Shown: positions 12,968 to 64,000 of the stretch, piece after piece
How positions within the stretch are numbered: position 1 is the first letter of the stretch
Layout: every line of letters begins with the position of its first letter
NCBI GenBank assembly: GCA_965224245.1
Contig: OZ245046.1
Span: 512,001-576,000 of the forward strand
From: Candidatus Eiseniibacteriota bacterium
GTDB taxonomy: Bacteria; Eisenbacteria; RBG-16-71-46; CAZAMP01
Length of the DNA stretch: 64,000 nucleotides
Reading direction: 5' to 3'
The notes under the pieces: model-generated
The model's database searches: none
What the model was told of the DNA's origin: nothing
Seen by the model: the letters and a program-made list of their open reading frames with translations, nothing else
Translations under genes and position numbers: made by a program

Positions 12968-12985
12968 GGACATCCAGTTCGTCAA

Positions 12986-13078: not shown

Positions 13079-13081
13079 GTT

Positions 13082-39623: not shown

Positions 39624-42600
39624 ATGTCGGTCCCGTCGTTTCGTCGCGCCACGCGCCCACGGGCGCTCTTCACGTTCACCACGGTGCTCGCGATGCTGCT
39701 CGCGCTGGCGGTCGTCGGGACCGTGGCGTCCGCGACGTCCGTCGCGGACGCGGTGGAGAAGCCGGCGCCCGGGATGCTGACGATCCCCGCCCCGACCTCC
39801 GACACCCCCGCGCCGCTCCTCGAGGAGCTCCGCCAGGCGAAGCGCGCCGGCGACGTCGCGGCGGCTCACGCGCTGCACGAGACGCTGGGCTGGACGAGCG
39901 AGGCTCGAGCCGGCGACGCCGCCACGACGGCGGCGACCGTGACCCGCGCCGTCAGGCGCTCGGGACTCCCCGGCGGCCCCGATCCGCTGCTCTACGATCA
40001 GCTCGTGAACCAGCCGGCCTGGTCGTCGGGGGCACCGGCGATCGCGAGCACGAACGACGGCGTTCTCTACGCCGTCGTCGAGGACCTCAACGGCGCGTAC
40101 CTGGACATCTACCGGTCCGACAGCGGTGGCTACTCGTGGACGTACGAGCTGAGCCTGACCGGGGTCGATCCGGTCCAGCCGGCGATCGCGATCGCCGAAG
40201 GCAACGAGAACCGGCTCCTCGTCGTGTACGTCGACGGAAGCACGACGGCGTCGGCCGCGATCAAGTCGTTCCGGATGGACATCGACACCGGTACCTCGGC
40301 GACGTCCACCATCTTCGCGCAGGCCTACGCGGTCCTGTCCGACCCGCACATCGCGCTGGACAGTCCCGAGTACGCGTACTGGTACCCCTACGTGACGTGG
40401 ATCCGCGGCACGGTCGGGCGCGGGGTCTCGTACGGCGTCGACTTCAGCCGATCGCTCGACTACGGCGAGACGTGGACGTCGTCCACGACGCTGGCCACCA
40501 GTGCGACGAGCGATCTCGAGCACGACGTCGACTTCGGGGCGTCCACGCTGCACGTGGCCTACACGGTGACCGCCGCGCCGGGTAACCGCGACGTATACCT
40601 GCGCCGGAGCACCGACTTCGGCGGGTCATTCGCCGCCGGGAGCGGCGTGGCCACCGCCTCCCAGGACGAGTACGAGCCGACCGTGGGCGCGACGCGCGAC
40701 GGGAGCCTGGTCGCGGTCGCGTTCACGAAGGCCTACACCGTGAGCAACACCGACGCCGAGGCGGTCGTGTCGATCGACGGCACGAGCTGGTCGCTGACGT
40801 ACCTGCCGTACGACGGCTTGCTGGAAGGGCAGGTCGATCTGGCCGCCAGCGAGAACGCGCCCATCGTTCACGCGGTCTATCGCCGGGATCCCGGTCGCGT
40901 GGCCACGACGTCGATGCACGCGGAGATCCTGAGCTGGGACCCCGCGCATCGCGTGAACGAGTCCGCGCTGGCCGATCCGACCTACGGCCCCGCCGTGGTG
41001 GCCACGCCGGTTCGCGCGCAGGAGGCGGGTGTCGTCTGGACCACCCAGGGCCCCGACGCGAAGCGCGTGATGTTCGACGCGGACTACCCGGTCGGAGATC
41101 TCGTCGTGGTGCTCGCCGATCCCTCGCTGGCCACGGCCGTCGCCGGGTACCGGAGCTGGAAGGAGTCGATCGGCTATCGGGTCGTGGTGACCGACGTGCC
41201 GGCGATCCTGGCTGCATATCCGTCCGGTGACGACGCGGAGCGGATCTTCGCCTACCTCGCCGATCACAGTGACGCCACTCGCCACGTGATGCTGGTCGGA
41301 GACGTGGACCTCCTCCCGATGCGGCTCCTCTATCCGGACGACAAGGGACTCGCGTACGGCTCGGACTTCTACTACGCCAGCGTGGGGACACTGGTGTGGG
41401 ACTCGGATGGGGACGATCGATGGGGGGAGTTCGTGGACGACGGCCTCGATCCCAACCCGGATCTCATCGTGGCCCGGCTCCCGTTCGACGACGCGACCAG
41501 CGTGGAGGCCGCCTGTACGAACATGGTCGCGTTCGAGCAGGCGACCGGCGCCTGGAAGCGCAGCGTGGTTCTGGCCAACGGGTTCATGGACCACGTAGAG
41601 AATACGCCGGCCGATCCGGTCACCGACGCCGCCTACTCGGGTGAGGCCACCCGCGCCGACTGCCTGACGCCGATGGGATGGGGCTCGACCCGTCTCTACG
41701 AGGAGGGCGGGATCTCGACCTCGGTGTTCACGGTCGACACACCGCTCAGCCAGACCGCCTATCGCGCCGAGCTCGGATGGGGCATGCACGGAATCGTGAA
41801 CAACATCGCGCACGGCAATCCCACGGGGATGGCAGGAGTCGTCTGGGACGCCGACCTCAACGAGAGCTTCACCCGCGACCTGCCCGAGGAGTGGAGCTAC
41901 AACTGGTTCAGCAACTCCGGCGACATCTCGACCGACCCCGCGGCCGGGGTCGTGTGCCTGTGGGGGTGCTCGACCGCTCACCTGTTCGGGCAGTGCAACG
42001 CCTTCTCGAGCTCACCCCTGCGATCGCGGTTCCTGATCCGCGAGACGCGATCGGACATGATGCTCAAGGAGTATCTCCGGAACGGTGCGGGCGCGGTCAT
42101 CGCCGCGACTGCGGGGAGCGACTACGGCGCCGGGTGGACGACGCCGGCGCAGGGCCATCAGCAGTCGCTCGCGTACTACCTCTTCTCGGAGATCGAGGGC
42201 GGGCGGAGACGCATGGGGGACGCGTTCCACGCGGCGGCCGCGCGCTACGCGTCCACTCACGGGCTCGCGCGAGGCATCCGGGTCTTCCACGCGTTCGGCG
42301 ACCCGACGCTCTCGCTGGACGACGTCGAGATCCCGGCCGGCGCCGAGCGCGTGGCGGGGCCGGTCGCCGCCCACGTGACGGTCGACCGGAGCGGCACCGA
42401 GCGTGGGGGGGATTGCGACCTGCCCGTCGACTCGGTCGACTGGTCTGCGCCGGTCGAGCTTCCCGGCGGGATGTCCATCCAGACGTTCGCGATCTCCGGC
42501 TACGATCTCTTCGCCGGCGGGATCAGCTCCGATGAGACGGGCACCCGCGGCAGCGTCTATCACAGTCCCGACGGCGGCCTCCTGTGGACGCGCCACGACG

Positions 42601-43706
42601 TGCCCGGCGCGCGCTCGATTCGCGTGATCGAGCCCACGCGCGCCGGCGCGCTGATCGCCGCCGGGATGTCCGAGGAGGACGGCGCGTACCCGGCCGCGAT
42701 CTATCGTTCCACCGACGGTGCGGTCTCGTGGACCCCGACGTGGTTCGGTGTCGAGGGTGTCGTCACCGACGTGGTCGAGCGCGCCGACGGCCGTCTGGTG
42801 GCCGTGACCGGGTGGGACGGCGAGGTTCTCGAATCCGAGGACGACGGTGAGAGCTGGATGGCGATCGCCGATCTGGGCCCCGGTGTCTCGATCAGCTCGA
42901 TCTCCGAGGTCGACGGCGAGCTCTTCGCCACGCTGGATGCGCCAATGGGGCTGTCGCCGGTTCTTCACTCGTCGGACGGCGCGTCCTGGGGCCCGGTCGC
43001 CGGGCTGGAGACCGTGGAAGCCGCGTACGACCTCGTGCGCGGGGGCGACGGCGACCTCTACGCGGGCGTTCGCGACCTCGGAGGCGCCGGCGTCGTGTAC
43101 CGGTCGTCGACGGCCGGCGAGCTCTGGGAGCCGACCACGGAGTTTCCCGATCCCGGGGCGGTGCGGGTCCGCACGCTCCTGGAGGGTCCCGACGGATCGA
43201 TCTACGCCGGCGCATCGAGTGCGCTCGGGGTGGCGAGCACGCGCGTGTATCGACTGGAGCCCGGTGGCACCGACTGGGAGCGTGTCGGCTCCGAGGTGGA
43301 CCTGGCCAACGACGTGCATGCCATGACGGTGTACGGTCCGAACGTCTACGCCGGCACCGGCGACCTCTACGGCAGGGTCTACCTGATCTCGCACGGCGTG
43401 CTCCTGGCGGCTCCGGCCACGACGCCCGAGATCGCGCTCCGCGTCGACGCGGTGGCGCCGAACCCGTTCACCACCACGACCGCGTTCCGCTACACGATCG
43501 GCGCTCCCGCGGACGTCACCCTGGACGTCTTCGATGCGATGGGCCGGCTCGTGCGGCAGCTGACCGATCACGCAGCGGCGGGATCGCACACGATCGGGTG
43601 GGACGGGACGAACGCAGCCGGCGAGGCGGTCTCCACGGGCGTGTACTTCTATCGCCTGCGTGCCGGCGGACTCGAGGAACGGGGCCGTGTGGTCGTGGCC
43701 CGGTGA
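39624..43706 (+). CDS. Large secreted C25 (gingipain-family) peptidase with Asp-box propeller regions and FlgD-Ig/T9SS-like tail
   Basis: Signal peptide, Asp-boxes (SLDYGETW, STDFGGSF, STDGAVSW), C25 motifs (WKESIGY, MLVGD, SDFYY, VARLP, IAHG, WGCST, FGDP), 'PNPF...WDGTN..G..V.TGVYFYRL' tail. Confidence 0.82.
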   Translation: MSVPSFRRATRPRALFTFTTVLAMLLALAVVGTVASATSVADAVEKPAPGMLTIPAPTSDTPAPLLEELRQAKRAGDVAAAHALHETLGWTSEARAGDAATTAATVTRAVRRSGLPGGPDPLLYDQLVNQPAWSSGAPAIASTNDGVLYAVVEDLNGAYLDIYRSDSGGYSWTYELSLTGVDPVQPAIAIAEGNENRLLVVYVDGSTTASAAIKSFRMDIDTGTSATSTIFAQAYAVLSDPHIALDSPEYAYWYPYVTWIRGTVGRGVSYGVDFSRSLDYGETWTSSTTLATSATSDLEHDVDFGASTLHVAYTVTAAPGNRDVYLRRSTDFGGSFAAGSGVATASQDEYEPTVGATRDGSLVAVAFTKAYTVSNTDAEAVVSIDGTSWSLTYLPYDGLLEGQVDLAASENAPIVHAVYRRDPGRVATTSMHAEILSWDPAHRVNESALADPTYGPAVVATPVRAQEAGVVWTTQGPDAKRVMFDADYPVGDLVVVLADPSLATAVAGYRSWKESIGYRVVVTDVPAILAAYPSGDDAERIFAYLADHSDATRHVMLVGDVDLLPMRLLYPDDKGLAYGSDFYYASVGTLVWDSDGDDRWGEFVDDGLDPNPDLIVARLPFDDATSVEAACTNMVAFEQATGAWKRSVVLANGFMDHVENTPADPVTDAAYSGEATRADCLTPMGWGSTRLYEEGGISTSVFTVDTPLSQTAYRAELGWGMHGIVNNIAHGNPTGMAGVVWDADLNESFTRDLPEEWSYNWFSNSGDISTDPAAGVVCLWGCSTAHLFGQCNAFSSSPLRSRFLIRETRSDMMLKEYLRNGAGAVIAATAGSDYGAGWTTPAQGHQQSLAYYLFSEIEGGRRRMGDAFHAAAARYASTHGLARGIRVFHAFGDPTLSLDDVEIPAGAERVAGPVAAHVTVDRSGTERGGDCDLPVDSVDWSAPVELPGGMSIQTFAISGYDLFAGGISSDETGTRGSVYHSPDGGLLWTRHDVPGARSIRVIEPTRAGALIAAGMSEEDGAYPAAIYRSTDGAVSWTPTWFGVEGVVTDVVERADGRLVAVTGWDGEVLESEDDGESWMAIADLGPGVSISSISEVDGELFATLDAPMGLSPVLHSSDGASWGPVAGLETVEAAYDLVRGGDGDLYAGVRDLGGAGVVYRSSTAGELWEPTTEFPDPGAVRVRTLLEGPDGSIYAGASSALGVASTRVYRLEPGGTDWERVGSEVDLANDVHAMTVYGPNVYAGTGDLYGRVYLISHGVLLAAPATTPEIALRVDAVAPNPFTTTTAFRYTIGAPADVTLDVFDAMGRLVRQLTDHAAAGSHTIGWDGTNAAGEAVSTGVYFYRLRAGGLEERGRVVVAR

Positions 43707-43804
43707 GAGCGAAGCCGACGCGCACTTTCCTGTGAGCGTCAGATCGTCGATACTTGCGGAGCGGGTGGGTAGTTCGGCTCGCCTGCTCCGTGAGGAGTAC
43801 GACG

Positions 43805-44386
43805 ATGTCCGAGACGCCCAGCCCCGCCGAGTCCTCGATCGAGCTCATCCGGCGCGTGCAGGCGGGCGACGACGACGCGCTGAACCGGCTCTGTGCCCGC
43901 TACCTGCCCATCCTCCAGCGGTGGGCGTCGGGCCGACTCCCGGCGCGTGCTCGCCAGGCCGTGGAGACCGCCGACCTCGTGCAGGACACGCTGGTGCAGA
44001 CGCTGGGCAACCTCGGCCCGTTCGAGCACCGGCGGGAGGGAGCGATCCTGGCGTACCTCAGGACCGCGCTCAGCAACCGCATCCGGAGCCAGATTCGCCG
44101 CGTGGATCGGCGTCCGGAAGAGGTGGACCTGGACGAGCGTCTGAACGCGCACCCGTCGCCCACGCCGATCGATACGCTCATCGGGTCGGAGAACGCGCGC
44201 CGGTACGAGACCGCGCTCGCGTCGCTGCGTCCGGTCGAGCGCGAGGTGATCATCGCGCGGCTCGAGTTCGGGCTGTCGTTCGCCGAACTGGCCGACGCGC
44301 TCGAGAAGCCGAGCGCCGACTCGGCGCGCATGTTCTTTCGCCGGGCCGTGCTGCGTCTGGCCGAGGCGATGCGCGATGACGCGTGA
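43805..44386 (+). CDS. ECF-type RNA polymerase sigma factor
   Basis: 'AGDDDALNRL', 'DLVQDT', 'YLRTALSNRIR', region 4 'LRPVEREVI...GLSFAELADAL'. GAGGAG RBS. Confidence 0.9.
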   Translation: MSETPSPAESSIELIRRVQAGDDDALNRLCARYLPILQRWASGRLPARARQAVETADLVQDTLVQTLGNLGPFEHRREGAILAYLRTALSNRIRSQIRRVDRRPEEVDLDERLNAHPSPTPIDTLIGSENARRYETALASLRPVEREVIIARLEFGLSFAELADALEKPSADSARMFFRRAVLRLAEAMRDDA

Positions 44387-47300
44387 TCCGACCGTCGAGC
44401 ACGTGCTGTCCGCGATCGCCGATCGCGACGCGGTGGACTGGGAGCACACGTTCTCGAAGTCCGGTGACGAGCCCACCCGGCGCACGCTCGAGGCGCTCCG
44501 GGTGATCGCGCGCATGCAGCAGCTCCCCGACCCCGGCGGGGTCTCTGATCCCGGCGGGACCTCCGACGCCGCCGGAGACGTGCCCACGCACTGGGGCACG
44601 CTGGAGATTCTCGAGCGCATCGGTGCCGGGAGCTTCGGCACGGTCTACCGCGCGCGGGATCCGGCGCTGGATCTCGAGGTCGCGCTGAAGGTGCTCCACG
44701 CCGCGAGCGAGGCGTCGAACGTCGCGATCCTCGAGGAGGGACGCTGGCTGGCCAAGCTCCGCCACCCGAACGTCGTGCGCGTGTACGGGGTGGACGAGCG
44801 CGACGGTCGGATCGGCCTCCGGATGGAGCTCATCCGCGGACGGTCGCTGGACCGGATCGTGCGCGAGGAAGGACCGATCGGTCCCTACGAGGTCACGCGC
44901 ATCGGCATGGACCTCTGTCACGCGCTCTCGGTGGTGCACGGGGCGGGACTGGTTCACGGCGATCTGAAGGCCCAGAACGTCATGCGTGACGACGACGGTC
45001 GCATCGTGCTGATGGACTTCGGGGCCGGATCACGCGTGGGCGACGAGGATGCATCGACGCCGACCCTGCGCGGCACGCCGATCTACCTGGCCCCCGAGGT
45101 GATCGCCGGGGGGGCGCGAACCACGGCCTCGGACATCTACGCGCTGGGGACCACGCTCTACTTTCTCGTCTCCGGACGCTTTCCGATCGAGGCCTCGACG
45201 CTCGCCGAGGTCGACGCGGCGCACGCGGAAGCCCGCGTGACGTCGCTGGCGGCGGTGAGCCCGGATCTGCCCGATGCGTTCGTGGCCGTCGTGGCGCATG
45301 CCACCGATCCGTCGCCCGACGCACGCCAGGCATCCGCGGCCGAGCTGGCGCGCGCGCTGGCTCGCGTGCTGGTGGTGCCGAGCGAAGGTGCGCGAGGAGA
45401 CTCGGCCACGCCGACGAACCTGCCGCCGAGCATGACGCGATTCATCGGGCGACGGCGGGCCCTCGAGGAGCTCTCGGCCCTGGCGAGCGAGCACCGACTG
45501 GTCACGCTGACGGGGCCGGGGGGATCGGGCAAGACGCGTCTGGCCGTCGAGCTCGGCGCCTCGCTCCTGGACGCGTTCGCCGACGGCGTGTGGATGGTCC
45601 CGCTGGCGCCGGTCCGGGACGCGGCCGGCGTCATCTCGGCGATCGAGCGCGTTCTCGGGGTGCCCGAGCAGTCGGGGGAGGCGTCGGTCGACGCGATCGC
45701 GAAGTCGATCGACGCCATCGCGCGGCACCTCGACGGTCGTCACATGCTGCTGCTCCTGGACAACTGCGAGCGCGTCGCCGGGGTGCTGGCCGATCACGTG
45801 ACCCGGCTGCTCTCACGCGGCACGTCGGCCAGGATCCTCGCCACCAGCCGCGAGCCGATCGGGATCCCCGGCGAGTGGATCTACGGCGTTTCCCCGCTGG
45901 ACGTCCCCGCCTCGATCGAGGCCGGGCGATCGGTCACCGGTGATGCCGCCGCGGTCGATCCCGACGAGCTCGTACGCACCGAGTCGATCCAGCTGTTCGT
46001 GGACCGAGCCCGCGCCGCCGCCGGTCGGTTCGAGCTGACCGACGCCAACCGGGACGCGGTCGCGAACATCTGTCGCCGCCTCGACGGGCTGCCGCTCGCG
46101 CTGGAGCTCGCAGCCGCCCAGGTACGCTCGCTCCCGGTGGACGAGCTGGCCCGGCGCCTGGAGACGCGGCTGGACGTACTCCGGGACCGTGGTGCGCCCG
46201 AGCCGGCGCATCACGAGACCCTGGGGACGTCGATCTCTTGGAGCCTCGATCGATTGACGCCACGCGACCGGGAGGCGCTCGTCGTCCTGTCCACGTTCGT
46301 GGGTGGATGGTCGCTGGAGGCGGCGGAGACCGTCTTGCCGGAGGCCTGCGGGATGCCCGAATCGGAGGTGATCGACGTGCTGTCGAGCGTCACGTCGAAG
46401 TCGCTCGTGCATCTGACGGACTCCGGAGGCGCGGGAGTGCGCTACGAGATGCTCGAGACGGTCCGGGAGTACACGCAGAGCCGGCCCGGCTCCGATGCCA
46501 CGCGAGACGCCGCACGGCCCGCCTTCGTCTCTTACTACCTGGCGCTGGCCACGTCGAGCAATCAGGCGCTCATGAGCGCCGGCGACGTGGAGGCACTGGC
46601 GCGGCTGGAGTCCGAGCGACACAACCTGCTCGCGGCGGTCCGCGCCTCTGTCGAGACGGACGACCTGGAGACCGCGATGCTCATCGCCGGCGCCCTCGGC
46701 CGATACTGGATGGTCAGCGCGCGAACGCGGGAGGGACTCTCGCTCTGCCGGGAGCTCCTCGCGCATCCGGCGTCGTCACGGCGCTCGCCGGCTCGCGCCA
46801 CCGTCGCGTCGTGGTGCGCGGTGTTCGTGAAGAACGCCGACGGGACCGCGTCGCGGCGGTACTGGGAGGAGGCTCTGTCCATTCGCCGTGACGCGGGCGA
46901 CCAGAGGGGCATCGCGTCCGTGTTGAATGGCCTGGCCGTCCTGGAGTACGACGCGGGAAACACCGCACGCGCCCGCGATCTGTACGACGAGAGCCTCGCG
47001 CTGCGACGGGAGCTCGACGAGGAGCGCGGCATCGCGCAGTCGCTGACGAATCTCGCGCTGTGCAGCGTCGCCGAGGGGCGCCTCGACGACGCGGCCGCGG
47101 AGTTCGAGGAAGCCCTGGCGATCCACCGCCGCCGCGAGAACGTCTGGGGCGTTGCCCACGTGACCGGCCAGCTCGGGTTCGTGCGGGCGCGCGCCGGAGC
47201 GCTCGACGAAGGCCGGCGTCTTCTGGAGGAGGCGATCGCGATTCACGAGGACCTGGGTCCCGAGGTCGCACTGAGCGTGCGCCTCGGCTTCGTGTACCTG

Positions 47301-47609
47301 TGGTCGGCGCTCTTCGAGGCGGCACGCGAGCGCTTTCGGATGGCCGTCCGGGTCAACGAGGCCACCGGTGACGACATGCCCCCATCGGAGGCGCTCCGCG
47401 GTCTGGCCCTCGTGGCGCTTCACCACGGCGAGCACGAGCAGGCCGCGCGACTCCTGGGCGCATCGGCCCGGAATCGCTTCGTGTCGCTCGATGCGTTCCA
47501 GCGCGCGGAGACCGAGAAGGCCGAACGGGCCCTGCGCGAAGCGCTCGGAGATGCCATCTACGAACGCGCGTGGACCGAGGGCGCCGACGATCCCGATCCC
47601 GCGGTGTAG
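44376..47609 (+). CDS. Ser/Thr protein kinase fused to NB-ARC/STAND-like ATPase and TPR repeats
   Basis: Kinase (IGAGSFGTVY, VALK, HGDLKAQN, DFG, APE), 'FIGRRR', 'GPGGSGKTRLA', 'LLLDNCE', 'GLPLALELAA', C-terminal TPRs. No TM segment. Confidence 0.9.
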   Translation: MTRDPTVEHVLSAIADRDAVDWEHTFSKSGDEPTRRTLEALRVIARMQQLPDPGGVSDPGGTSDAAGDVPTHWGTLEILERIGAGSFGTVYRARDPALDLEVALKVLHAASEASNVAILEEGRWLAKLRHPNVVRVYGVDERDGRIGLRMELIRGRSLDRIVREEGPIGPYEVTRIGMDLCHALSVVHGAGLVHGDLKAQNVMRDDDGRIVLMDFGAGSRVGDEDASTPTLRGTPIYLAPEVIAGGARTTASDIYALGTTLYFLVSGRFPIEASTLAEVDAAHAEARVTSLAAVSPDLPDAFVAVVAHATDPSPDARQASAAELARALARVLVVPSEGARGDSATPTNLPPSMTRFIGRRRALEELSALASEHRLVTLTGPGGSGKTRLAVELGASLLDAFADGVWMVPLAPVRDAAGVISAIERVLGVPEQSGEASVDAIAKSIDAIARHLDGRHMLLLLDNCERVAGVLADHVTRLLSRGTSARILATSREPIGIPGEWIYGVSPLDVPASIEAGRSVTGDAAAVDPDELVRTESIQLFVDRARAAAGRFELTDANRDAVANICRRLDGLPLALELAAAQVRSLPVDELARRLETRLDVLRDRGAPEPAHHETLGTSISWSLDRLTPRDREALVVLSTFVGGWSLEAAETVLPEACGMPESEVIDVLSSVTSKSLVHLTDSGGAGVRYEMLETVREYTQSRPGSDATRDAARPAFVSYYLALATSSNQALMSAGDVEALARLESERHNLLAAVRASVETDDLETAMLIAGALGRYWMVSARTREGLSLCRELLAHPASSRRSPARATVASWCAVFVKNADGTASRRYWEEALSIRRDAGDQRGIASVLNGLAVLEYDAGNTARARDLYDESLALRRELDEERGIAQSLTNLALCSVAEGRLDDAAAEFEEALAIHRRRENVWGVAHVTGQLGFVRARAGALDEGRRLLEEAIAIHEDLGPEVALSVRLGFVYLWSALFEAARERFRMAVRVNEATGDDMPPSEALRGLALVALHHGEHEQAARLLGASARNRFVSLDAFQRAETEKAERALREALGDAIYERAWTEGADDPDPAV

Positions 47610-55480: not shown

Positions 55481-58063
55481 ATGCAGGCATCATCACGATC
55501 GACATCGCATTGGTTCGAGTGCTCGGAGCTCCGCCACCTACCGACCCGCCGCGCGCGGAATCCGATCGTGGGTGTGCTGGCGATCACGATCCTCGCCGCG
55601 TCGGGCTGCGGGACTCCGGACGACCGGACCCCGACCCCGACCGTGACCGACGACGCGCACAGGCCGCACTTCACGGACGTCACGCGAGCCGCCGGGATCG
55701 ACCACACGCACTCGAAGCCGCGCCTCGATCCGAAGCTCGACAACATCATGCCGTGGGTCTCCAGCGTGGGAGCCGCCGCGGCGGCCGGCGACGTCGACGG
55801 TGACGGATGGATCGATCTCTACGTGACCACGTCTCGCAAGGGCGCCCAGAACCTCCTCTATCGGAACCAGGGCGACGGAACGTTCACGAACGTGGCGAGC
55901 ACGGCCGGCGTCGCCGACGTGAACGACGACGACGGGGTCAGCATCGACTGCATCTTCGGAGACGTCGACGACGACGGATGGACCGATCTCTACCTGGTCC
56001 GGTGGGGTCGCGACCGTCTGTTCCTGAACGACGGAGACGGCACGTTCACCGAGGTCACGCGCGAGCGCTTCACCCGGCGCGACGGCATGCCGGGCACGGA
56101 CTGGGCGAACGGGTGCGGTGCGGTCTTCCTCGACTACGATCGGGACGGCCGTCTGGACATCTACGTCGCGAACTACTTCCGCGACGTCGATCTGTGGGAT
56201 CTGACGTCGACTCGAATCATGCACGACGACTTCGAGCACTCTCGAAACGGGGGAGAGAACTTTCTCTACCACCAGGAGCCCGACGGCACGTTCCGGGAGG
56301 TCGCCTCGTCGCTGGGGATGGAGGATCCCGGCTGGACGCTCGCCGTCGGGTCCGCGGACGTCGACAACGACGGGTGGCTGGACGTCTACTGTGCGAACGA
56401 CTTCGGGCCCGACCAGCTCTTCCTCAACCAGGCGGACGGCACGTTCTCGAACGTGTCGGACGTCGCGCTCGAGTACGATACGAAGAAGGGCATGAACGTC
56501 GACTTCGGAGACGTCAACAACGACGGATGGCTCGACATCTACGTCACGAACATCACCACGGCCGAGTACCTCCGCGAGGGGAACATGCTCTGGCACAACA
56601 ACGGCCCGTCGGACGAGGCGCGCGTCGACTTCGTCGACATCGCCACCGTCTCCGACACGTACGACGGGGGCTGGGGCTGGGGCGCAAAGTTCTTCGACGC
56701 CGACAACGACGGGAGCCTCGACCTCGTGGCCGGAAACGGCTTCATCAGCGCCGGGGAAGGCGAGTACTGGTTCGAGCTGGCCTCCTGGACGGTCATCGCC
56801 GAGGATCCGGCCGACGCCGCCAACTGGCCCGCCATCGGAGAGCGCTCCTTCTCGGGGTTCGAGCCCATTCGATTCTGGCTCAATCGAGAAGGAACCTTCG
56901 TGGAGTCGGCAGCGGCCTCGGGGCTCACGACCCGACGCGACGAACGGGGCGTGGTCACGATCGACTACGACAACGACGGGGATCTGGATCTCTATCTCGC
57001 GAATCAGGGGCAGCCTCCCTGCCTGTACCGCAACGACACACCTGCCCGCCACCACTGGCTCACCGTGGCCCTCGAGGGACGGAGTGACGCGATCGGCGCG
57101 CGTGTGACCGTCGTGACGCCGGACGCCACACGCATCCGGGAGCGCGACGGAGGGAACGGCTACTCCGGTCAGAGCGATCCCCGCATTCACGTCGGGCTGG
57201 GCGAGAACGAGTTGGTCGAGCTCGTGGAGGTCCGCTGGTCGGACGGTGGGCTGCAGTACCTCGAGAATCTGCCGGTGGATCAGATCGTCACCGTCGAGCA
57301 GGATCGGGCGCGCTACGTGGCCAGCGTCCCGCGCGTCGCGGCGATGCCCGAGCGCATCGTGCTCGACACCGCCGAGTCGGAGACGCCGGCGATCGATCCC
57401 GCCGAGCTGGACGAGCTCTTGACGGAGCTCGAGACCGCCATCCGCTCGGGGGACACGACGCTCCGGACCACGAGCCTCTATCGAAACCGCTGCATCACGT
57501 ACGGCGTACACGAGCGTTCGGTGCGCTTCTTCGAGGCGCTCGTGAACGAGCACCCCGACCAGAGCCGCCATCGAGTGAACCTCGCGCTGGCCTACGTGGA
57601 CAAGATCCCGACCTGCGGTGGGGTGGCCGCGGTCGTCAGCAAGGGTACGCTGGCTCGAAAGTCGCTCGACGAGGTGACGCGTGTGATCGATCATGACGGC
57701 GGCACGTGGCTGACACACTACATCCGGGGCATGAACCATCTGCACTGGCCGCGCGCGCTCCGCCACTCCGACGATGCGGCCGCCGAGTTCGAACGCTGCC
57801 TCGAGATCCAGAGCGCGGCGTCGGATCCCCGCGATTACTTCGTACGTACGCATGTAGCACTGGGCGACGCTTATGCCAAGGATGGCCACGCCGATCGCGC
57901 GCGCGCCGTCTGGAGGGCGGCCCTCGAGCACTACCCGGACGCCGAGGCGATCTCGACGCGACTCGGGATCACCGACGACGACGCGCTGCTCGATTTCGTC
58001 GAGGACGCGCGGAGCATCGACCGTCCGATCGATACGGACATGTCGTTCGTCGAGCGGTACTGA
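55481..58063 (+). CDS. CRTAC1/ASPIC-UnbV family lipoprotein (FG-GAP repeats) fused to C-terminal TPR-like domain
   Basis: Lipobox-like 'ILAASGC', 'IMPWVSSVGAAAAAGDVDGDG', many DxDxDGxxD repeats, ASPIC/UnbV 'AIGARV...GGNGYSGQSDPRIHVGLG....VEVRWSDG', helical tail from about 57390. Confidence 0.9.
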   Translation: MQASSRSTSHWFECSELRHLPTRRARNPIVGVLAITILAASGCGTPDDRTPTPTVTDDAHRPHFTDVTRAAGIDHTHSKPRLDPKLDNIMPWVSSVGAAAAAGDVDGDGWIDLYVTTSRKGAQNLLYRNQGDGTFTNVASTAGVADVNDDDGVSIDCIFGDVDDDGWTDLYLVRWGRDRLFLNDGDGTFTEVTRERFTRRDGMPGTDWANGCGAVFLDYDRDGRLDIYVANYFRDVDLWDLTSTRIMHDDFEHSRNGGENFLYHQEPDGTFREVASSLGMEDPGWTLAVGSADVDNDGWLDVYCANDFGPDQLFLNQADGTFSNVSDVALEYDTKKGMNVDFGDVNNDGWLDIYVTNITTAEYLREGNMLWHNNGPSDEARVDFVDIATVSDTYDGGWGWGAKFFDADNDGSLDLVAGNGFISAGEGEYWFELASWTVIAEDPADAANWPAIGERSFSGFEPIRFWLNREGTFVESAAASGLTTRRDERGVVTIDYDNDGDLDLYLANQGQPPCLYRNDTPARHHWLTVALEGRSDAIGARVTVVTPDATRIRERDGGNGYSGQSDPRIHVGLGENELVELVEVRWSDGGLQYLENLPVDQIVTVEQDRARYVASVPRVAAMPERIVLDTAESETPAIDPAELDELLTELETAIRSGDTTLRTTSLYRNRCITYGVHERSVRFFEALVNEHPDQSRHRVNLALAYVDKIPTCGGVAAVVSKGTLARKSLDEVTRVIDHDGGTWLTHYIRGMNHLHWPRALRHSDDAAAEFERCLEIQSAASDPRDYFVRTHVALGDAYAKDGHADRARAVWRAALEHYPDAEAISTRLGITDDDALLDFVEDARSIDRPIDTDMSFVERY

Positions 58064-58074
58064 CTCCGAGTGCC

Positions 58075-58218
58075 GGGGCGGCAGGCGTGGTGTCTCCTCC
58101 GCTCAAACCTGCCGGCGTGGCCCTCGGGGAAGGTGGGGGTGTCGTTTCGTGCGGGAGCGGTGACGGAGACGTGCTGGTCGCATCCATTCGCTCACCCCGA
58201 CACCACGCCTGCCGCCCC
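58075..58218. repeat. 144-bp segment bounded by a perfect 20-bp inverted repeat
   Basis: GGGGCGGCAGGCGTGGTGTC at 58075-58094 and its exact reverse complement GACACCACGCCTGCCGCCCC at 58199-58218. Confidence 0.85.
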
Positions 58219-58380
58219 TGTGTCGGGGGATCGACCGGCGCCCGGATGTCGAGGTGTGGGGGATGGTGCGGATCTCCCGGAACTCGGACGCCATCCGATG
58301 TAGAGTGCGCTCCGGCTTGGGCATGACACGGAGGTTGGGGCGGCGGTGTCGGGGGATCGAACGGGGTCGGTCCGAAGAGA

Positions 58381-58415
58381 AATGAAAAGGGGCGATGCCG
58401 GGGTGGCATCGCCCC
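58381..58415 (-). terminator. Intrinsic terminator of the 58438-60003 gene
   Basis: 11-bp stem GGGGCGATGCC / GGCATCGCCCC with a 5-nt loop, followed on the minus strand by TTTTCATTT, about 22 nt after the stop. Confidence 0.85.
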
Positions 58416-58437
58416 ATCGACACGATGGTCGTGTTCG

Positions 58438-60003
58438 CTACTTCAGCATGACCGCCTGTCGCGTCTCGACGACGTGACCGTCCACGACCAGCTCGTAGAA
58501 GTACGTTCCGGAGGCCAGGAGACGGCCGGATTCGTCGCGACCGTCCCAGTTCACCCGATGCGATCCCGCGCTCACGTGCGCGTCCACGAGCGTGCGCAGG
58601 AGGCGCCCCGTCGCGTCGTAGATGCGGATCTGCGCGGTGCCGGCGTTCTCCAGCACGAAGGGGAGCGCCGTCGAGGGGTGGAACGGGTTCGGCCGAGGCG
58701 CCAGCAGCCGCGTACCGGCGGCGACCCCGGTCTGCGGGCTGGAGAGCGGCGTCACGTCGCCGGTGCCCATGCGGACGGTGCCGACGGTGGACCCGCCCAG
58801 GCCCTCGAGAATGCTGCCCGGTGCACCCTGGAAGTCGATCCGGTAGGCGATGTCGAAGAAGCTGTCGACCTGGAAGTCGCCGCTGGGTAGCTGCGTCAGC
58901 GTCGTGTGTCCCGGGCTCGGGAGACCGAACTCGGTACCGCCGGTGATGCCGAGGAACTCGAAGTCCGGATCTCCGAACAGCTTACCCTGCAGCCGCACCA
59001 TGTCGTTGTCGAACTCCTGGACCGGGTCGCCCGGCGTCCGCGGACCGGTGTGCACCTCGCACTGGATCGGGATGATCATCGTGCGTGCGTAGCCCTCGAG
59101 GTCGCCGGTGCCGTTGAGCGTCATCGTCAGCTGCGACTGGAACTGCTCGATCTCGCCGCCCAGCGTGCCGCCCGGTGTCGCGACCACGTTGAAGAACCGG
59201 TCGTGAATCGGGTCGAACTCGATCGTCGTTCCCGGTGGAAGGCCGTCGATGATCATGTGGACCTGGTCCGGCGACAGGTACTGACAGCCGTCGGGCGGCA
59301 GGCGGACGGTACCCGTCCCGTCGTCGGCGACCACGCACGGGTTGTCGGGAGCCGGCTCGCCGCCCTGCATCCGTACGGTTCCCTCGGTCGGGCCGCCGAA
59401 GCCCTCGAGGATGCTTCCCGGCGCGCCCTGGAACTCGATCCGGTAGGCGATGTCGAAGAAGCTGTCGACGTTGAAGTTGCCGTTGGGGAGCTGCGTGAGC
59501 GTCGTCTGACCGGGGCTCGGGAGGCCGAACGACGAGCCCGCGACGATCTGGATGAAGTCGAAGTCCGGGTCGCCGAAGAGCTGGCCCTGGAGCTGCACCA
59601 TCTCGTTCGGAAACGTCTGCACGGGGTCGCCGGGCGAGCGCGGACCGGTGTGAACCTCGCACGCGATCGGGATCGCCATCGTTCGGGCAAACCCGGCCAG
59701 ATCGCCGGTTCCCGTCATCTGCATGAACAGGAACGACTGGAACTGCTCGACCTCGCCGCCGAGCGACCCGCCCGGGAATCGCACCTCGTTGAAGAACTTC
59801 GCGTGCTCGGCCGCGACGTGGATCTCGGTGCCCGCCGGGAGGTTGCCGATCATGATGTGCAGATCGTCCGGAGAGACGTATCCGCATCCGGGCGGTGGCA
59901 GGTCGACGGTCCCGGTGCCATTGTCGGGTACCTCGCACACGTCCGCTCTCGCGATCGAGCCGACCAGCGCGGCCATACATACGACGCTCCAAAGACGCGA
60001 CAT
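58438..60003 (-). CDS. Secreted protein with two tandem 200-aa domains of unknown family and FlgD-Ig/T9SS-like tail
   Basis: AGGAGG RBS, signal peptide, repeats starting at C23 and C223 sharing 'CEVHTGPR.PGDPVQ.F', 'FGLPSPG.TTL', 'VDSFFDIAYRI.FQGAPGS'. Tail 'PNPF...YDATGRLLRTL...WDGRDESG..LASGTYFY'. Confidence 0.88.
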   Translation of the reverse strand: MSRLWSVVCMAALVGSIARADVCEVPDNGTGTVDLPPPGCGYVSPDDLHIMIGNLPAGTEIHVAAEHAKFFNEVRFPGGSLGGEVEQFQSFLFMQMTGTGDLAGFARTMAIPIACEVHTGPRSPGDPVQTFPNEMVQLQGQLFGDPDFDFIQIVAGSSFGLPSPGQTTLTQLPNGNFNVDSFFDIAYRIEFQGAPGSILEGFGGPTEGTVRMQGGEPAPDNPCVVADDGTGTVRLPPDGCQYLSPDQVHMIIDGLPPGTTIEFDPIHDRFFNVVATPGGTLGGEIEQFQSQLTMTLNGTGDLEGYARTMIIPIQCEVHTGPRTPGDPVQEFDNDMVRLQGKLFGDPDFEFLGITGGTEFGLPSPGHTTLTQLPSGDFQVDSFFDIAYRIDFQGAPGSILEGLGGSTVGTVRMGTGDVTPLSSPQTGVAAGTRLLAPRPNPFHPSTALPFVLENAGTAQIRIYDATGRLLRTLVDAHVSAGSHRVNWDGRDESGRLLASGTYFYELVVDGHVVETRQAVMLK

Positions 60004-60207
60004 CGTCTAACCTCCTGCCGTCGACACCGCGCCGTTCGTCTCTCGTACGGCGAACGATCTCCGGCCAACGGTTTTGTAGGATGATGCGGGCGCATCACGC
60101 GAACGCGATTCGATCCGGTCCGAATGCCCTCGACCGGCTCGAAGGACGGCCACGATCCGAGGAAGCGGGTGACCCCAAAAAACGGCCATCGGGAAACTCT
60201 CATCGAA

Positions 60208-60237
60208 ATGATACTGTGTTGCCCGGAAACTGGACAA
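60208..60237 (-). promoter_or_regulatory. Putative sigma-70 promoter for the tandem-repeat protein gene
   Basis: Minus strand TTGTCC-N18-TATCAT in an AT-richer divergent region. Implies a leader of about 200 nt. Confidence 0.45.
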
Positions 60238-60287
60238 GCACGTGCTGAGGATCTTGCCCCGCGAGGACCGAGATCGATGATCCTGGC

Positions 60288-62978
60288 ATGAAATCGCGCC
60301 ATGCGCCGCCGACGCGTCCACGCCCGCTCCCGTGGGGGTGGAGCCTCTCGCATCCCACGCTTATTCTCCTGTTCGTCGCGGTTGTGACCGCGTTTCTGGG
60401 AGCCGGGCTGGGTCGGCTGCGGCTGCGGACCGATGGACACGCCCTGATTCCGGCCGAGCGGGCCGAGATCGTCGAGGACGCCGAGATCCGTGAGCGGTTC
60501 GGCGTTCGGGATCCCGTGATCGTCCTGGTGCGGTCGTCGAGCCCGGAGGGGATCTACACGGTCCCGGCGCTGGCGGCGCTGGTCGAGCTCTCGGACTCGC
60601 TGTCGGCGCTGGCCGGGCCCGGGTCCGTGATGAGCCTGGCCACCGAGCGCGGCGATCGCTTCGAGCGGGGCACGCTCAGGTATCGCCGCTTTCTGTCACC
60701 ACTGCCGGCATCCGAGGGGGCGATCGACACGCTTCGCTCCGACCTGGCCGCGCTCGCCCTGCCGGTGGGGACGCTCGTCTCCGACGACGGAGCCGGCGCC
60801 GCCATCTACGTGGACGTCGATCCGGGGGCGGAGCGGAGCGCGTTCCTGGCCCGGGTCATGGACCTGGTCGCCCGACACCGCACCGAGGATCTACGGCTCG
60901 ACGTCATCGGGGCTCCGATCGCGGAGAGCCTGCTCGGGCTGCACATCCTCGCCGACCTTGGATTGCCCGGGGCGGCGCGCGCCCACGCCGACGACGTCGA
61001 CCCCGATCGGCCCGCCGCCGGGTGGGAGCGGACACGTGACGTGATCACGCGGCCCGGCCTCGTTCCGATCGCCATCGTCATCATGTTCGTCGTGTTCGTG
61101 GTCGCGTTCCGGAGTGTTCCCGCGGCAGTTCTGCCCTTGATCGAGGTGCTCGCCTGTCTGATCTCGGTGCTCGGGCTCATGGGCTGGATGGGCGTGCCGT
61201 TCTACCTGACGATCGCGCCGATGCCCGTGATCCTGACCATGATGGGGGTCGCGGACGAGGTCCATCTGTTCGCACGTCATGCGCGCCTCCGCACCGAAGA
61301 CCCCAGTGCCGACCCGAGGGAGGTCGTCGACGCCACGATGCGCGACCTCGTGCGACCGGTCGTGTGGACCTCGGTGACGACGGCGATCGGGTTCGCGTCG
61401 TTCGCGCTGTCGCCGATCGCACCGGTGCGTGCGTTCGGGGTGTTCACGGCGCTGGGCGTGATGTATTGCCTGGGATGGTCGCTTCTGGTCACGCCGGCGC
61501 TCCTCGTGCGTCTACCCGCGTCACAGGTGGGAGATCCACGGCTGCCATCGGCGCCGCTCGATCGGCTGGGTCGTCTGGTCACCGGTCACCCGAAGGCGAC
61601 GCTGGGGGTGGCCGGGCTCGTCGTGCTCCTGTCGATACCGGGACTGGTGCGGCTGAAGGTGCAGGACAGCTGGATCTCGGGCTTCTCGGAGCGGAGCCGG
61701 TTTCGATCCGCGACCGAATGGTACGACGCGCACTTCCTCGGGATGCACCGGCTCTTGATCGAGGTCCGGGGCGAGCCCGTCGACGTGGTCGGCGCGATCC
61801 CCGTAGACCGACTCGAGCGGCATCGGCTGACGCTGCCGTCCGGGAGCGTCTCCGATCCCGGGCGGCTGGTCGGCTGCCGGATCGCGCTGTCCCCGGACGG
61901 CTGGCGTCACGACGAACCCGAGCAACGCTGGGAGTCGTGGATCGTGCTCGCCGAGGAGACCGCCGACGGCCTCGTGCTGATGACGCCCCGCCGCGATGGG
62001 TCTGCGCGGATGCGCTTCGGGGATCAGCTCACGGGCGTGGTGAGATACGAGATCCGGTCGCGGACGTTCTCCTGGCACGAGCACCTCCGCCGTGTCGAGG
62101 CGTTCGAGGCGGTCGTGGCATCGCGGCGGGACGACACCGTGGGGGGCGTGATCGGCGCCGCCGCCCACGTTGCCACCGCCGACTACGTGGTGACGCGTCG
62201 CGATTCCACCGCACGCGAGGTTCCTGACGACCCCGATCGCGTGGGCTGGCTGCTAAGCCAGTACGGGCGCGTTCACGGCGAGCGCCGTCTCCGCGCCATC
62301 GTGGATCCCGACCTCGAGCGCGCGCTCGTGACCGTCTTCATGCGCGCCGCGAACTACCGGGCCACCGCGTCGTTGATGCGGGAGACCCGGGCCTACGCGC
62401 GAGAGCATCTCGAGCCCGCCGGGCTGTCGATCCGATTCGCCGGTGACGTCGCGGTGAGCCAGACGCTGATCGAGTCCATCGTCAGCACCCAGCGACGCTC
62501 TCTGGGGCTCTCGCTCGTGGGGATCCTGGTCGTGCTCGTGGGCCTGATGCGATCGCCGGTGCGCGCCGTCATGGGCGTGCTGCCATCGGCGATGGCCGTC
62601 GGCATCGGGCTGGCCATGCTGGGCGCGACCGGGCGCTCGCTCGGGGTGTCCACGTCCATGTTCGCCGGCATGACGCTCGGTGTGGGCGTCGACTTCTCCA
62701 TTCACCTGCTGGCGGCGCATGCGCGGGCGGTCGGGACCCGTGCCGAGCGGATCCGGCTCGCACTGGCCGATGCCGGTCCCGCGATGACGATCGATGCGCT
62801 GGCGGTTGCGCTCGGGTTCGGCGTGCTGTGTGTGTCGGGGGTGCCGGCCAACGTCGCGCTGGGGTCCCTGGCCCTGGTGTGCATTCTGACCTGCCTGGCC
62901 GTCACGCTCGGGGTGGTGCCGGCGCTCCTGTCCCTCGGTGCCGGCGGGAATGGACCGGAGGACGGGTCGAGCGCATAG
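60288..62978 (+). CDS. MMPL/RND-family exporter
   Basis: Two repeats of TM + large loop + TM bundle. 'MGVADEVH', 'TSVTTAIGF.SF', 'GVGVDFSIH', 'ALGFGVL'. Start uncertain. Confidence 0.9.
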   Translation: MKSRHAPPTRPRPLPWGWSLSHPTLILLFVAVVTAFLGAGLGRLRLRTDGHALIPAERAEIVEDAEIRERFGVRDPVIVLVRSSSPEGIYTVPALAALVELSDSLSALAGPGSVMSLATERGDRFERGTLRYRRFLSPLPASEGAIDTLRSDLAALALPVGTLVSDDGAGAAIYVDVDPGAERSAFLARVMDLVARHRTEDLRLDVIGAPIAESLLGLHILADLGLPGAARAHADDVDPDRPAAGWERTRDVITRPGLVPIAIVIMFVVFVVAFRSVPAAVLPLIEVLACLISVLGLMGWMGVPFYLTIAPMPVILTMMGVADEVHLFARHARLRTEDPSADPREVVDATMRDLVRPVVWTSVTTAIGFASFALSPIAPVRAFGVFTALGVMYCLGWSLLVTPALLVRLPASQVGDPRLPSAPLDRLGRLVTGHPKATLGVAGLVVLLSIPGLVRLKVQDSWISGFSERSRFRSATEWYDAHFLGMHRLLIEVRGEPVDVVGAIPVDRLERHRLTLPSGSVSDPGRLVGCRIALSPDGWRHDEPEQRWESWIVLAEETADGLVLMTPRRDGSARMRFGDQLTGVVRYEIRSRTFSWHEHLRRVEAFEAVVASRRDDTVGGVIGAAAHVATADYVVTRRDSTAREVPDDPDRVGWLLSQYGRVHGERRLRAIVDPDLERALVTVFMRAANYRATASLMRETRAYAREHLEPAGLSIRFAGDVAVSQTLIESIVSTQRRSLGLSLVGILVVLVGLMRSPVRAVMGVLPSAMAVGIGLAMLGATGRSLGVSTSMFAGMTLGVGVDFSIHLLAAHARAVGTRAERIRLALADAGPAMTIDALAVALGFGVLCVSGVPANVALGSLALVCILTCLAVTLGVVPALLSLGAGGNGPEDGSSA

Positions 62979-63132
62979 GGACCTGGTATCACCGACGCGA
63001 TCGCGTTTATACTGATCTTTCCGTTCGGCGGTCCCTTTTTGGCGGCCCGTCCCGTGCCGGCGGCGTCGGCGCTCGACCCGGGAACCATCACGAACGGTCA
63101 TCTCGCTGGCCCGCGAGGAGCAGGTTTCACAC

Positions 63133-64000
63133 GTGAAGACGCTTCCGACGCTGCGCCGGCGGCTCTTCGGCATCTCCAGCGCCGAAGCCGAGTTCGCGCG
63201 ACGCGGTTTTGAGCCGACCACCGGCGCCAAGCAACGCGTCCTCGAGACCGCCGGCGCGACGTTCATCGAGGGATACAACCGTGCGATCGCGCACGGACGC
63301 GGCACCGGCGTGGCCGACCTTCTCTTCGACGTCGATCCGAGCCGGCTGGGGTTCGCGTTCGAAGGAGCCGCCATGGCGCTCGCACTTCTCGACCGGCTCC
63401 TGCCGTGGCGCGGCACTCGCCTCCAGACCCTGCTCGCCGGAGACGGCGATCCCCACCGGTACATGGTGTTCGTCGGTGCGGGCTGGGCGCTGGCCAGGCT
63501 GCGTCGATCGCCGCGTTCGCTTCTGGGCCTCGATCCCATTCTAGGCTGGCTCGCCGTGGACGGAATGGGATTCCACGACGCGTACTTCCACCCGGATCGG
63601 ACGATCGGCCGGGCCGAGCGGTCGGCGCGCGCGATGGGTGTCGCCGCTCACGTGTTCGACCAGGGTGTCGGACGGGCGATGTGGTTCGTGTGCGGGGCGA
63701 ACGTCACCCGGACGTCGTCGACCGTGTCGGGATTCTCGGCCGAGCGGCACGCCGATCTGTGGAGTGGGGTCGGGCTCGCGGCCACGTACGCCGGTGCGGT
63801 CGATCGTGACGAGCTCCTCGCGTTGCGCGAGGCGTCGGGAGAGCATGCCTCGCATCTCGGTCAGGGATCGGCGTTCGCCGCCAAGGCGCGGATGCGAGCC
63901 GCGAATCCGACGCCGCACGTCGACGCGGCGACCGACGTGCTCTGCGGGCTCTCGTGCGGAGCCGCTGCCGATCTGACCGACGAGGCGCTGTCGGCCACCC
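63133..64000 (+). CDS. DUF1702 family protein (UnbL / enediyne E3-like), 3' end outside window
   Basis: Not in the ORF track. GAGGAG then GTG 63133, open to the window end. Hand translation: 'FARRGF', 'FIEGYN', 'GFAFEGAAM', 'HRYMVFVGAGWALARL', 'WLAVDGMGFHDAYF', 'DQGVGRAMWF', 'DLWSGVGLAATYAG', 'QGSAFAAKAR'. Confidence 0.88.
   Translation, partial: MKTLPTLRRRLFGISSAEAEFARRGFEPTTGAKQRVLETAGATFIEGYNRAIAHGRGTGVADLLFDVDPSRLGFAFEGAAMALALLDRLLPWRGTRLQTLLAGDGDPHRYMVFVGAGWALARLRRSPRSLLGLDPILGWLAVDGMGFHDAYFHPDRTIGRAERSARAMGVAAHVFDQGVGRAMWFVCGANVTRTSSTVSGFSAERHADLWSGVGLAATYAGAVDRDELLALREASGEHASHLGQGSAFAAKARMRAANPTPHVDAATDVLCGLSCGAAADLTDEALSAT

Follow-up and report, generated by a model that had tools for sequence, protein, structure and literature searches.

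Do the last kilobases of a stretch of DNA from a non-actinomycete bacterium hold the start of an enediyne-type gene cluster, and if so, what would such a cluster make? The stretch, called the window here, consists of 64,000 nucleotides (nt) of Candidatus Eiseniibacteriota bacterium (contig OZ245046.1, positions 512,001 to 576,000; G000:C1:512001-576000 in our numbering) and has a GC content of about 69% throughout. A first-pass annotation had placed four genes near its end, namely an FG-GAP/UnbV lipoprotein, a secreted repeat protein, an MMPL exporter, and a DUF1702 (UnbL, E3) protein, and had taken them for the left edge of an enediyne- or polyene-type cluster in an outer-membrane-bearing host. 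All four are present at the positions it gave and, judged by sequence, their family matches are strong and not due to chance. The host was correctly supposed to be outer-membrane-bearing, as LpxC is encoded in its genome; hence, it is expected to make lipid A. Compared with five named assemblies, its RpoB had no match in the one from Eisenbacteria and was 53-58% identical to the matches in the other four. The next 60 kb past the window end were also read. We interpret positions 55.5 to 64 kb and the next 6.6 kb as one compact cluster around an enediyne-type iterative polyketide synthase (PKSE), which would make an exported polyene-type lipid, and we hold this reading as a whole to be somewhat probable.

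The core of the cluster lies across the window end, with all genes on the + strand. Its first gene encodes an MMPL/HAE3-like RND transporter of 896 aa (60288..62978; Pfam). It is followed by E3 (322 aa, 63133..64000), which is cut by the window end and stops 102 nt beyond it at extrapolated position 64102 (L002:8134-9102). Beyond the window come the PKSE gene (2045 aa, extrapolated 64098-70235, L002:9099-15236) and the gene of an E10-type hot-dog thioesterase with a GTG start (141 aa, extrapolated 70222-70647, L002:15223-15648). The ATG of the PKSE gene overlaps the E3 stop as ATGA, and the thioesterase start overlaps the PKSE end by 14 nt. Going by these gene sequences, the operon of MMPL, E3, PKSE, and thioesterase is real, intact, and translationally coupled.

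E3 matches PF08012 over its full length (E 2.4e-103, 345.8 bits, cut-off 25; E 6.6e-99 for the part inside the window), is single-copy in the genome, and is about 41% identical to the Streptomyces copies. Its AlphaFold2 model is all-alpha (pLDDT 91); no solved sequence relative was found, and the fold search gave only short helical matches (Z <= 6.4). The Pfam domains of the PKSE, scanned on a 2060-aa open reading frame, come in the order KS-AT-ACP-KR-DH-PPTase, and the AT region matches the AT of DynE8 (E 3.5e-53). In comparison with eight other PKSEs (two from Streptomyces and six others), all catalytic motifs are kept: Cys/His/His of the KS, GHSLG of the AT, the ACP serine, TGGGKGI of the KR, the DH histidine, and the PPTase motif. 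The thioesterase (4HBT_2, E 1.5e-10) belongs to the DynE7/CalE7/SgcE10 family by sequence search. Its closest solved relatives are DynE7 (1.9e-41), CalE7 (9.1e-41), and the "ACP-polyene thioesterase" 4i4j (1.1e-37), with the next-best solved family at only E 5.6e-05. The left edge of a PKSE-type cluster is thereby confirmed by the synthase directly after E3, and the hot-dog thioesterase that had been predicted downstream follows the synthase directly. PKSE and thioesterase together yield a heptaene (PMC4480864, PMC9992847). In characterized systems, the released product is a C15 heptaene. By family membership, the PKSE and thioesterase described here should likewise release a conjugated polyene (PMC4480864, PMC9992847, PMC8725005).

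UnbU (E5) had been expected in the cluster as well, and this expectation failed. No UnbU match was obtained in the 20-kb locus, where tblastn with three UnbUs reached a best E of 0.48 and revealed no remnants. A profile of 60 UnbUs run against all stop-to-stop open reading frames of the genome had a single match (90.5 bits, C1:4.43 Mb), a 324-aa RnfD-family protein that lies 3.85 Mb away and is about 30% identical to canonical and variant UnbUs. This protein fits the general RnfD family better than UnbUs do. As it is a general family member beside a DUF2330 gene and an ECF sigma factor, we judged it to be probably unrelated and did not keep it as a UnbU supplied in trans. The gene overlaps the DUF2330 start, is divergent from the sigma factor, and lies near several MscS-like channel genes (G000:C1:4429797-4432056; L087:9797-12056); the RnfD-like and DUF2330 genes form a stand-alone pair. 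In other assemblies, an alignment of ten UnbUs found no match behind loci L017, L065, and L007, whose completeness is unstated, and did match behind L066 and L067. The idea that loci without E5 form one clade was dropped, as neither tree, DUF1702 (quick IQ-TREE) nor KS-AT (FastTree), groups them; many branches in these trees are poorly supported. Most trees reported here were of these two quick kinds, and they were built from sequences other than the characterized Sgc, Cal, Dyn, and Tnm proteins.

A true enediyne producer, with a cyclized 9- or 10-membered core, would need the E5 role to be dispensable or to be taken by the MMPL protein or the distant RnfD-like gene. In favour of this, the cluster covers four of the five cassette functions in one form or another and has an intact synthase, the genome has its one RnfD-family protein with 90.5 bits against the UnbU profile, and variant E5 genes accompany variant E4 genes in loci L070, L073, and L084. 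However, the RnfD-like gene is too distant, in both sequence and position, to argue strongly for this, and the MMPL protein is ruled out as a systematic replacement since the class-mate genome G021 and loci L046 and L073 carry both MMPL and E5, and five further genomes have no MMPL near the cassette. Moreover, the operon is not accompanied by genes for an epoxide hydrolase, a P450, sugars, an apoprotein, or resistance. We consider an enediyne producer decidedly unlikely. No cluster-like genes were seen past the thioesterase, and no tailoring genes were found there either. Because E5 and any tailoring, sugar, resistance, or apoprotein genes are missing, the product is most likely a linear polyene or polyyne lipid, exported and either envelope-associated or released, rather than a cyclized 9- or 10-membered enediyne.

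How unusual is this gene arrangement? DUF1702 homologues number at least 1494 among 7999 scored candidates, and none listed is more than 55% identical. A scan with one genome per species gave at least 376 confirmed loci, of which the best 80 were examined; open reading frames were called crudely as the longest frames, and the flanks of compared loci reached at most 10 kb. These 80 loci span more than ten phyla, including Acidobacteriota (many Pyrinomonadaceae), Cyanobacteriota, Planctomycetota, Chloroflexota, Armatimonadota, Verrucomicrobiota, Myxococcota, Pseudomonadota, Gemmatimonadota, Ignavibacteriota, Eisenbacteria, and others. With our own proteins as queries, a UnbV-like protein is found in 73/80, a PKSE in 67/80, and a thioesterase in at least 46/80 (flanks end near the thioesterase), and a UnbU-type RnfD-like membrane protein is present in 65/80, three of them divergent. 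The order E3-E4-...-E5 holds in 50 of the 69 judgeable loci, E3 is directly followed by PKSE in 8 (one an artefact of calling open reading frames), and the remaining 11 are arranged otherwise. Besides the window, E3 stands directly before PKSE in L017, L056, L065, L066, L073, L084, and L086. The rarity implied by the first-pass annotation does not hold, as such cassettes are spread over many phyla besides that of the actinomycetes and are already in print (PMC10308959, PMC4480864); an enediyne-like cassette in a non-actinomycete diderm is not new. Our literature search found nothing that treats UnbL, UnbV, and PKSE together, and DUF1702 is mentioned only incidentally. Within this set, a contig binned as Rhizobium sp. 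(L032) has DUF1702, E4, and PKSE near-identical to those of Microseira wollei (L042; branch lengths 0.007-0.04), which suggests a binning error or a very recent transfer.

Among 40 relatives, DUF1702 occurs only in G021, a genome of the same class and another family. Its locus consists of an MMPL gene (- strand), a three-repeat homologue of the secreted repeat protein, E3, canonical E4, canonical E5 (505 bits), PKSE, and thioesterase. When 40 kb of G021 were compared with 110 kb around our locus, only these genes matched (E <= 1e-10). The KS-AT regions of the two PKSEs are sisters with a support of 95 (FastTree, 59 rows; PKSE fragments with fewer than 850 aligned residues left out). In the DUF1702 tree (quick IQ-TREE, 86 rows), the two E3s stand apart from each other. 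The earlier idea that the cluster has export and secreted components of its own is supported in that the MMPL and repeat proteins travel with the cassette in this class-mate. The same comparison invites the view that our locus is a decaying or silent remnant of a G021-like E3-E4-E5-PKSE-thioesterase cassette that lost E4 and E5: the full canonical order persists beside a sister PKSE, our E3 and PKSE meet at the very point where E4 and E5 would be expected, and 39 of the 40 relatives are without DUF1702. Yet all frames are open, every catalytic motif of the PKSE is kept, the genes are tightly coupled, and no E4 or E5 remnants are found. With E3 directly before PKSE recurring in the seven loci named above and no UnbU in three other assemblies, we consider a remnant highly improbable.

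The lipoprotein upstream was proposed as the E4 of the cassette. It has 860 aa (55481..58063, + strand), with five FG-GAP_3 matches (E 1.2e-47), a UnbV_ASPIC domain (E 4.6e-21), and a C-terminal TPR region. The FG-GAP/UnbV_ASPIC core spans residues of about 60-610 and the TPR-like domain, called Ex here, about 626-860; the motif quoted earlier for this protein reads MPWVSSVGAAAAAGDVDGDGW. GGAGGA lies 5 nt upstream of the ATG, and the lipobox LAASGC is placed at Cys43 after a long leader with an RR motif. In this leader (55481-55609), 42 residues precede the lipobox Cys, and TRRARNP before the hydrophobic stretch resembles a twin-arginine signal; a leader of this type would imply that the lipoprotein is exported folded. 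UnbV_ASPIC has 22 matches in 17 open reading frames of the genome, so the proximity of the domain alone is weak evidence. The 860-aa protein, however, is the top own-genome match for all 11 E4 and E4-variant queries by a wide margin (214 vs 94 bits for the next with the E4 of G021, 541 vs 225 with that of L017). In a FastTree tree of 84 rows, from which matches with fewer than 400 aligned residues were dropped, including the fragmented L073 and L084 copies, and in which 12 of 16 paralogs were kept, the canonical E4s including those of Streptomyces form a clade (support 100, stem 1.8). Our protein, L017, and L070 branch below this clade, between it and our own paralogs, and E4s and variants together split from our own ASPIC paralogs with a support of 100. 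The evidence for this protein as the cassette E4 is divided: it is the best own-genome match for E4 queries, but it falls outside the canonical E4 clade, and most of its close relatives are without an adjacent polyketide synthase (PKS). A second UnbV, which had also been anticipated, was not found in the cluster.

The C-terminal 235 aa or so of this protein correspond to a separate 340-370-aa gene beside the variant E4 in the contig of L017 (38% identity) and in L084, L073, and L070, and the Ex domain is single-copy in our genome. As the TPR part is a separate adjacent gene in those four loci, our gene is taken to join a variant E4 and the partner that normally stands beside it into one protein. 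E4-variant genes adjoin E3, PKSE, or thioesterase genes in L017, L073, and L084 and E3 in L070, and a divergent UnbU follows in L070, L073, and L084 (58-61% mutual identity). When metagenomes were scanned with four aligned variant E4s, 591 loci were confirmed, of which the best 80 were examined; these are 40-64% identical, most spanning the fused length. E3, PKSE, or thioesterase genes lie in reach in 8 of these 80 (L105, L130, L139, L150, L155, L157, L158, and L161), and six others carry discrete KS genes instead (L126, L147, L148, L149, L162, and L167). None of the E4-variant loci shows synteny with the genes upstream in the window. In L070 (9980-20920), a variant E4, the TPR partner, a variant UnbU, and DUF1702 stand beside discrete FabF-like KS genes, not a PKSE. 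Variant E4 and TPR partner are found beside discrete FabF-like KS genes in L147 and L149 too (about 3000-18500), where a homologue of the repeat protein with 60-61% identity is also present.

Between the lipoprotein and the operon, the - strand encodes a secreted surface protein of 521 aa (58438..60003) with a signal peptide, two repeats of about 195 aa (repeat 1, 59356-59943; repeat 2, 58753-59340), and an FlgD_ig/type IX secretion system (T9SS) type A sorting domain (about 58441-58695). The repeats are 69% identical, and the tail is recognized by TIGR04183 (24.9 bits, cut-off 23) and PF13860 (44.3 bits, cut-off 27, residues 437-513). No Pfam model matched the repeat domain (repeat 1 alone, E <= 0.1), and the family of enediyne chromoprotein apoproteins (neocarzinostatin family) was matched neither in the Pfam scan of the whole protein, which returned FlgD_ig only, nor with repeat 1. 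In a first pass, a repeat profile from our own class found the domain beside E3 in 5 of the 80 DUF1702 loci, all from other phyla (L046, L075, L019, L012, and L074), as compared with a rough random expectation of about 0.5/80 by our own arithmetic, assuming two copies per 6-Mb genome. It also lies beside E3 in G021. Iterating the profile on the small locus database added L017, L027, L076, L016, L024, and L047; in two Streptomyces loci, the domain was not found. The five first-pass genomes, which were chosen for that match, have 1-2 carriers of the domain per 5-10 Mb, the best copy always being at the cassette. L046 has 15 copies in an open reading frame of more than 3284 aa that ends 23 nt before E3, L075 a 258-aa PEP-CTERM protein with the domain directly before E3, and L019 an M10 peptidase combined with the domain and PEP-CTERM. 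The domain adjoins the E4 variant in L134, L147, and L149 (43-61% identity). The L046 protein (L046:1-9855), from a Pedosphaera metagenome-assembled genome, is a surface protein in which at least 15 tandem copies are accompanied by HYR domains, before the DUF1702 of a canonical cassette. Just past the stop of the repeat-protein gene, a terminator-like hairpin is seen (58389..58415, - strand; 11 pairs, 9 of them GC, T-rich tail), which comes from a consensus scan alone that found 4 sites vs 3.7 expected in the region. A weak sigma-70-like promoter match (60208..60237, - strand, 9/12 positions) lies in the 285 nt that separate the divergent repeat-protein and MMPL genes.

The transporter at the head of the operon matches PF03176 in two stretches (72.8 bits, cut-off 20.5) and the Patched SSD domain with 57.3 bits. 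The nearest named NCBIfam models are HAE3, ActII-type MMPL, and HpnN, and no subfamily cut-off is reached (HAE3, 152.6 bits against 351.9; HpnN-like, 69 bits). MmpL/HpnN-type RND transporters are envelope lipid exporters. Our protein resembles them in its Pfam MMPL and sterol-sensing/Patched-type membrane domains but falls far under every subfamily cut-off. It is 24-25% identical to the two other RND paralogs that an MMPL query found in the genome, and homologues with 39-48% identity adjoin the cassette in G021, L073, L007, and L046. A 28%-identical MMPL adjoins the cassette of L158, where the order is PKSE, thioesterase, MMPL, and E4 variant with Ex.

Several results weigh against the reading as one cluster. 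Among the best 80 DUF1702 loci, MMPL is seen near the cassette in only 5, a lower bound as the flanks end near the thioesterase, and in none of the five further genomes mentioned above. In the metagenome loci where the E4 variant is flanked by 5 kb or more on either side, E3, PKSE, or thioesterase is present in just 3/22. Seven long loci without PKS genes (L107, L108, L111, L120, L124, L135, and L144) have sampled neighbours of ordinary, mixed function, namely amidohydrolase, GNAT, signal peptidase II, HisRS, KARI, a BamB-like protein, O-antigen ligase, multiheme cytochrome, and more FG-GAP/TPR proteins. The E4-variant/Ex family is enriched near PKSE-type genes and is not dedicated to them at this range; the link is facultative. 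The repeat domain occurs in 9/41 genomes of the class, 7 of which are without DUF1702, and its family has 3079 representatives at E <= 0.001, hence the domain is ruled out as exclusive to cassette genomes. Often, the domain is repeated 2-12 times in tandem within a large surface protein that also has HYR, beta-helix, or Ig domains. The sole paralog of our repeat protein adjoins a multiheme cytochrome: it has 565 aa, two repeats, and an FlgD_ig tail and is encoded directly after a 617-aa multiheme cytochrome c gene (G000:C1:313280-316946; L103:5280-8946). The AlphaFold2 model of the repeat domain is all-beta with modest confidence (pLDDT 73). A wide fold search returned eight-stranded up-and-down barrels (PagL, Z 8.4; OmpW, 8.0; NspA, 7.4; DynF, 6.8), then avidins and nitrobindin, the barrel matches at Z 5-8.4 all being in the range that the tool assigns to common arrangements, i.e., noise; Foldseek gave nothing at E <= 0.001. 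Finally, the absence of E5 from the genome is very likely but, at 97.4% completeness in 27 contigs, not proven.

Part of this evidence favours a narrower interpretation, in which only the MMPL, E3, PKSE, and thioesterase genes are functional together. The FG-GAP/TPR lipoprotein and the repeat protein would then be surface proteins that have no link to the operon and lie upstream by chance, secreted proteins being plentiful in this region. The 17 ASPIC-domain open reading frames, the many FlgD_ig-tailed secreted proteins in the window, the 19 of 22 well-flanked loci of the lipoprotein's relatives without a PKS neighbour, and the widespread repeat domain in genomes without DUF1702 all fit such bystanders. 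Against this stand the large margin by which the 860-aa protein outscores the rest of the genome with every E4 query and the position of its relatives, which lie beside E3, PKSE, or thioesterase genes far more often than a random gene should (8/80 loci as well as L017, L070, L073, and L084). The closest G021 homologue of the repeat protein lies between MMPL and E3 with no other common synteny, and repeat protein and E4 variant are adjacent again in L134, L147, and L149. We regard bystanders as unlikely and proceed with the interpretation as one compact cluster.

For this cluster, the gene content, order, coupling, intact motifs, family memberships, and partner recurrence are observed, and the chemical steps, transport direction, and roles of the surface proteins are inferred. 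The PKSE, which would phosphopantetheinylate itself, is predicted to build a conjugated polyene thioester in the cytoplasm, from which the E10-type thioesterase would free the polyene. The co-translated E3 may then act on the freed polyene, and the MMPL/RND pump would move the hydrophobic product out of the inner membrane. Outside the cytoplasm, the product would meet the exported E4-variant/TPR lipoprotein and the secreted two-repeat protein, which may bind or carry it. A bolder version would be an E5-independent, envelope-directed branch of enediyne-type chemistry in diderms, in which MMPL export is followed by hand-over to a tandem beta-barrel carrier and the FG-GAP/TPR lipoprotein; we think this quite unlikely. 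If true, the product could be a protein-bound cell-surface polyene or polyyne (a pigment, antioxidant, or contact weapon), as a diderm counterpart of the actinomycete chromoprotein idea, and the domain of about 195 aa would represent a new type of module, found widely, that carries such lipids.

The cluster spans about 15 kb, as the flanking genes on neither side recur in related loci. Upstream are secreted beta-helix, BNR, and C25-type proteins and an ECF sigma/kinase pair; downstream are a convergent GT9 glycosyltransferase, DoxX, phosphate transporters, CBM48, GH97, and aldehyde dehydrogenase genes. T9SS-type tails are frequent among the window proteins, and many of its secreted proteins are FlgD_ig-tailed. 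At 39552-47609 of the window, the genes of a 1384-aa C25-peptidase-like protein with BNR repeats and an FlgD_ig tail, of an ECF sigma factor, and of a 1077-aa Ser/Thr kinase-STAND-TPR protein come one after the other; this gene group is not common to related cassette loci. Comparison with a protein atlas gave scores of 0.83-0.88, under the lead level of 0.9.

Why such a cluster matters follows from its reduced content. E3, PKSE, and thioesterase are kept, E5 is dropped, E4 is replaced by a basal variant, and an exporter is included, which makes a small and defined gene set in a naturally reduced form. In print, the E3 to E5 helpers are called genes of unknown function, and enediyne-type clusters outside actinomycetes are all without a reported product (PMC10308959). 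With the reduced cluster, one can study the roles of E3 and E4 when E5 is absent and find out what such clusters make in diderms. The recurrent, unannotated secreted domain beside E3 offers a new lead on the extracellular handling of a hydrophobic, reactive polyene.

In comparison with known systems, the cluster is a variant of a known, widespread, and chemically uncharacterized kind; by itself, it shows neither a new enediyne nor a new kind of system. Unusual are the missing E5, the basal E4 variant, the recurrent secreted domain of about 195 aa that no family model describes, and the accompanying MMPL exporter. According to Shen et al. (2015, PMC4480864), a five-gene cassette is common to all known enediyne clusters, with 54/61 cassettes from Actinomycetales and 7/61 from outside, and enediyne-like PKSE cassettes outside actinomycetes with no known product have been reported by Singh et al. 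(2023, PMC10308959). Our locus belongs to the latter group of loci but is without the canonical E3-E4-...-E5 order, and its genome is without E5.

With the actinomycete minimal cassette, it shares the domain order of the PKSE, DUF1702 directly before it, a DynE7/CalE7-type thioesterase directly after it, and an FG-GAP/ASPIC protein nearby. It differs in having no E5, in a non-canonical, TPR-fused E4 that lies 5 kb upstream and not between E3 and PKSE, and in its MMPL pump and T9SS-tagged surface protein. The two Streptomyces loci compared, on pSCL4 of Streptomyces clavuligerus (L093) and on a plasmid of Streptomyces sp. NBC_01216 (L094), have the canonical order, and in one of them the third gene is annotated "enediyne biosynthesis protein UnbU." These Streptomyces loci also have P450, flavin reductase, regulators, and an MFS pump, which our cluster lacks. 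In L094 (12001-14059), two tandem DUF1702 genes precede E4, one of them on a long branch.

The DynF protein of the dynemicin pathway (PDB 6ubl) is an eight-stranded, palmitate-binding beta-barrel, which is proposed, but not shown, to bind the polyene (PMC8725005). The model of our repeat domain is also an up-and-down beta-barrel, with DynF at rank 8 (root-mean-square deviation 3.4, 122 aligned), and both proteins are encoded in PKSE clusters. There is, however, no sequence similarity; our domain is secreted, in tandem, and surface-sorted, and PagL, OmpW, and NspA score higher. Hence, the resemblance of the modelled domain to DynF is a lead, not a result.

The closest counterpart within the class is the G021 cassette (L088 and L089), which resembles ours in MMPL (39% identity), repeat protein (57-65%), E3 (49%), PKSE (47%), and thioesterase (52%), and differs in that canonical E4 and E5 separate its E3 from its PKSE, in the three repeats of its repeat protein, and in its other gene orientations.

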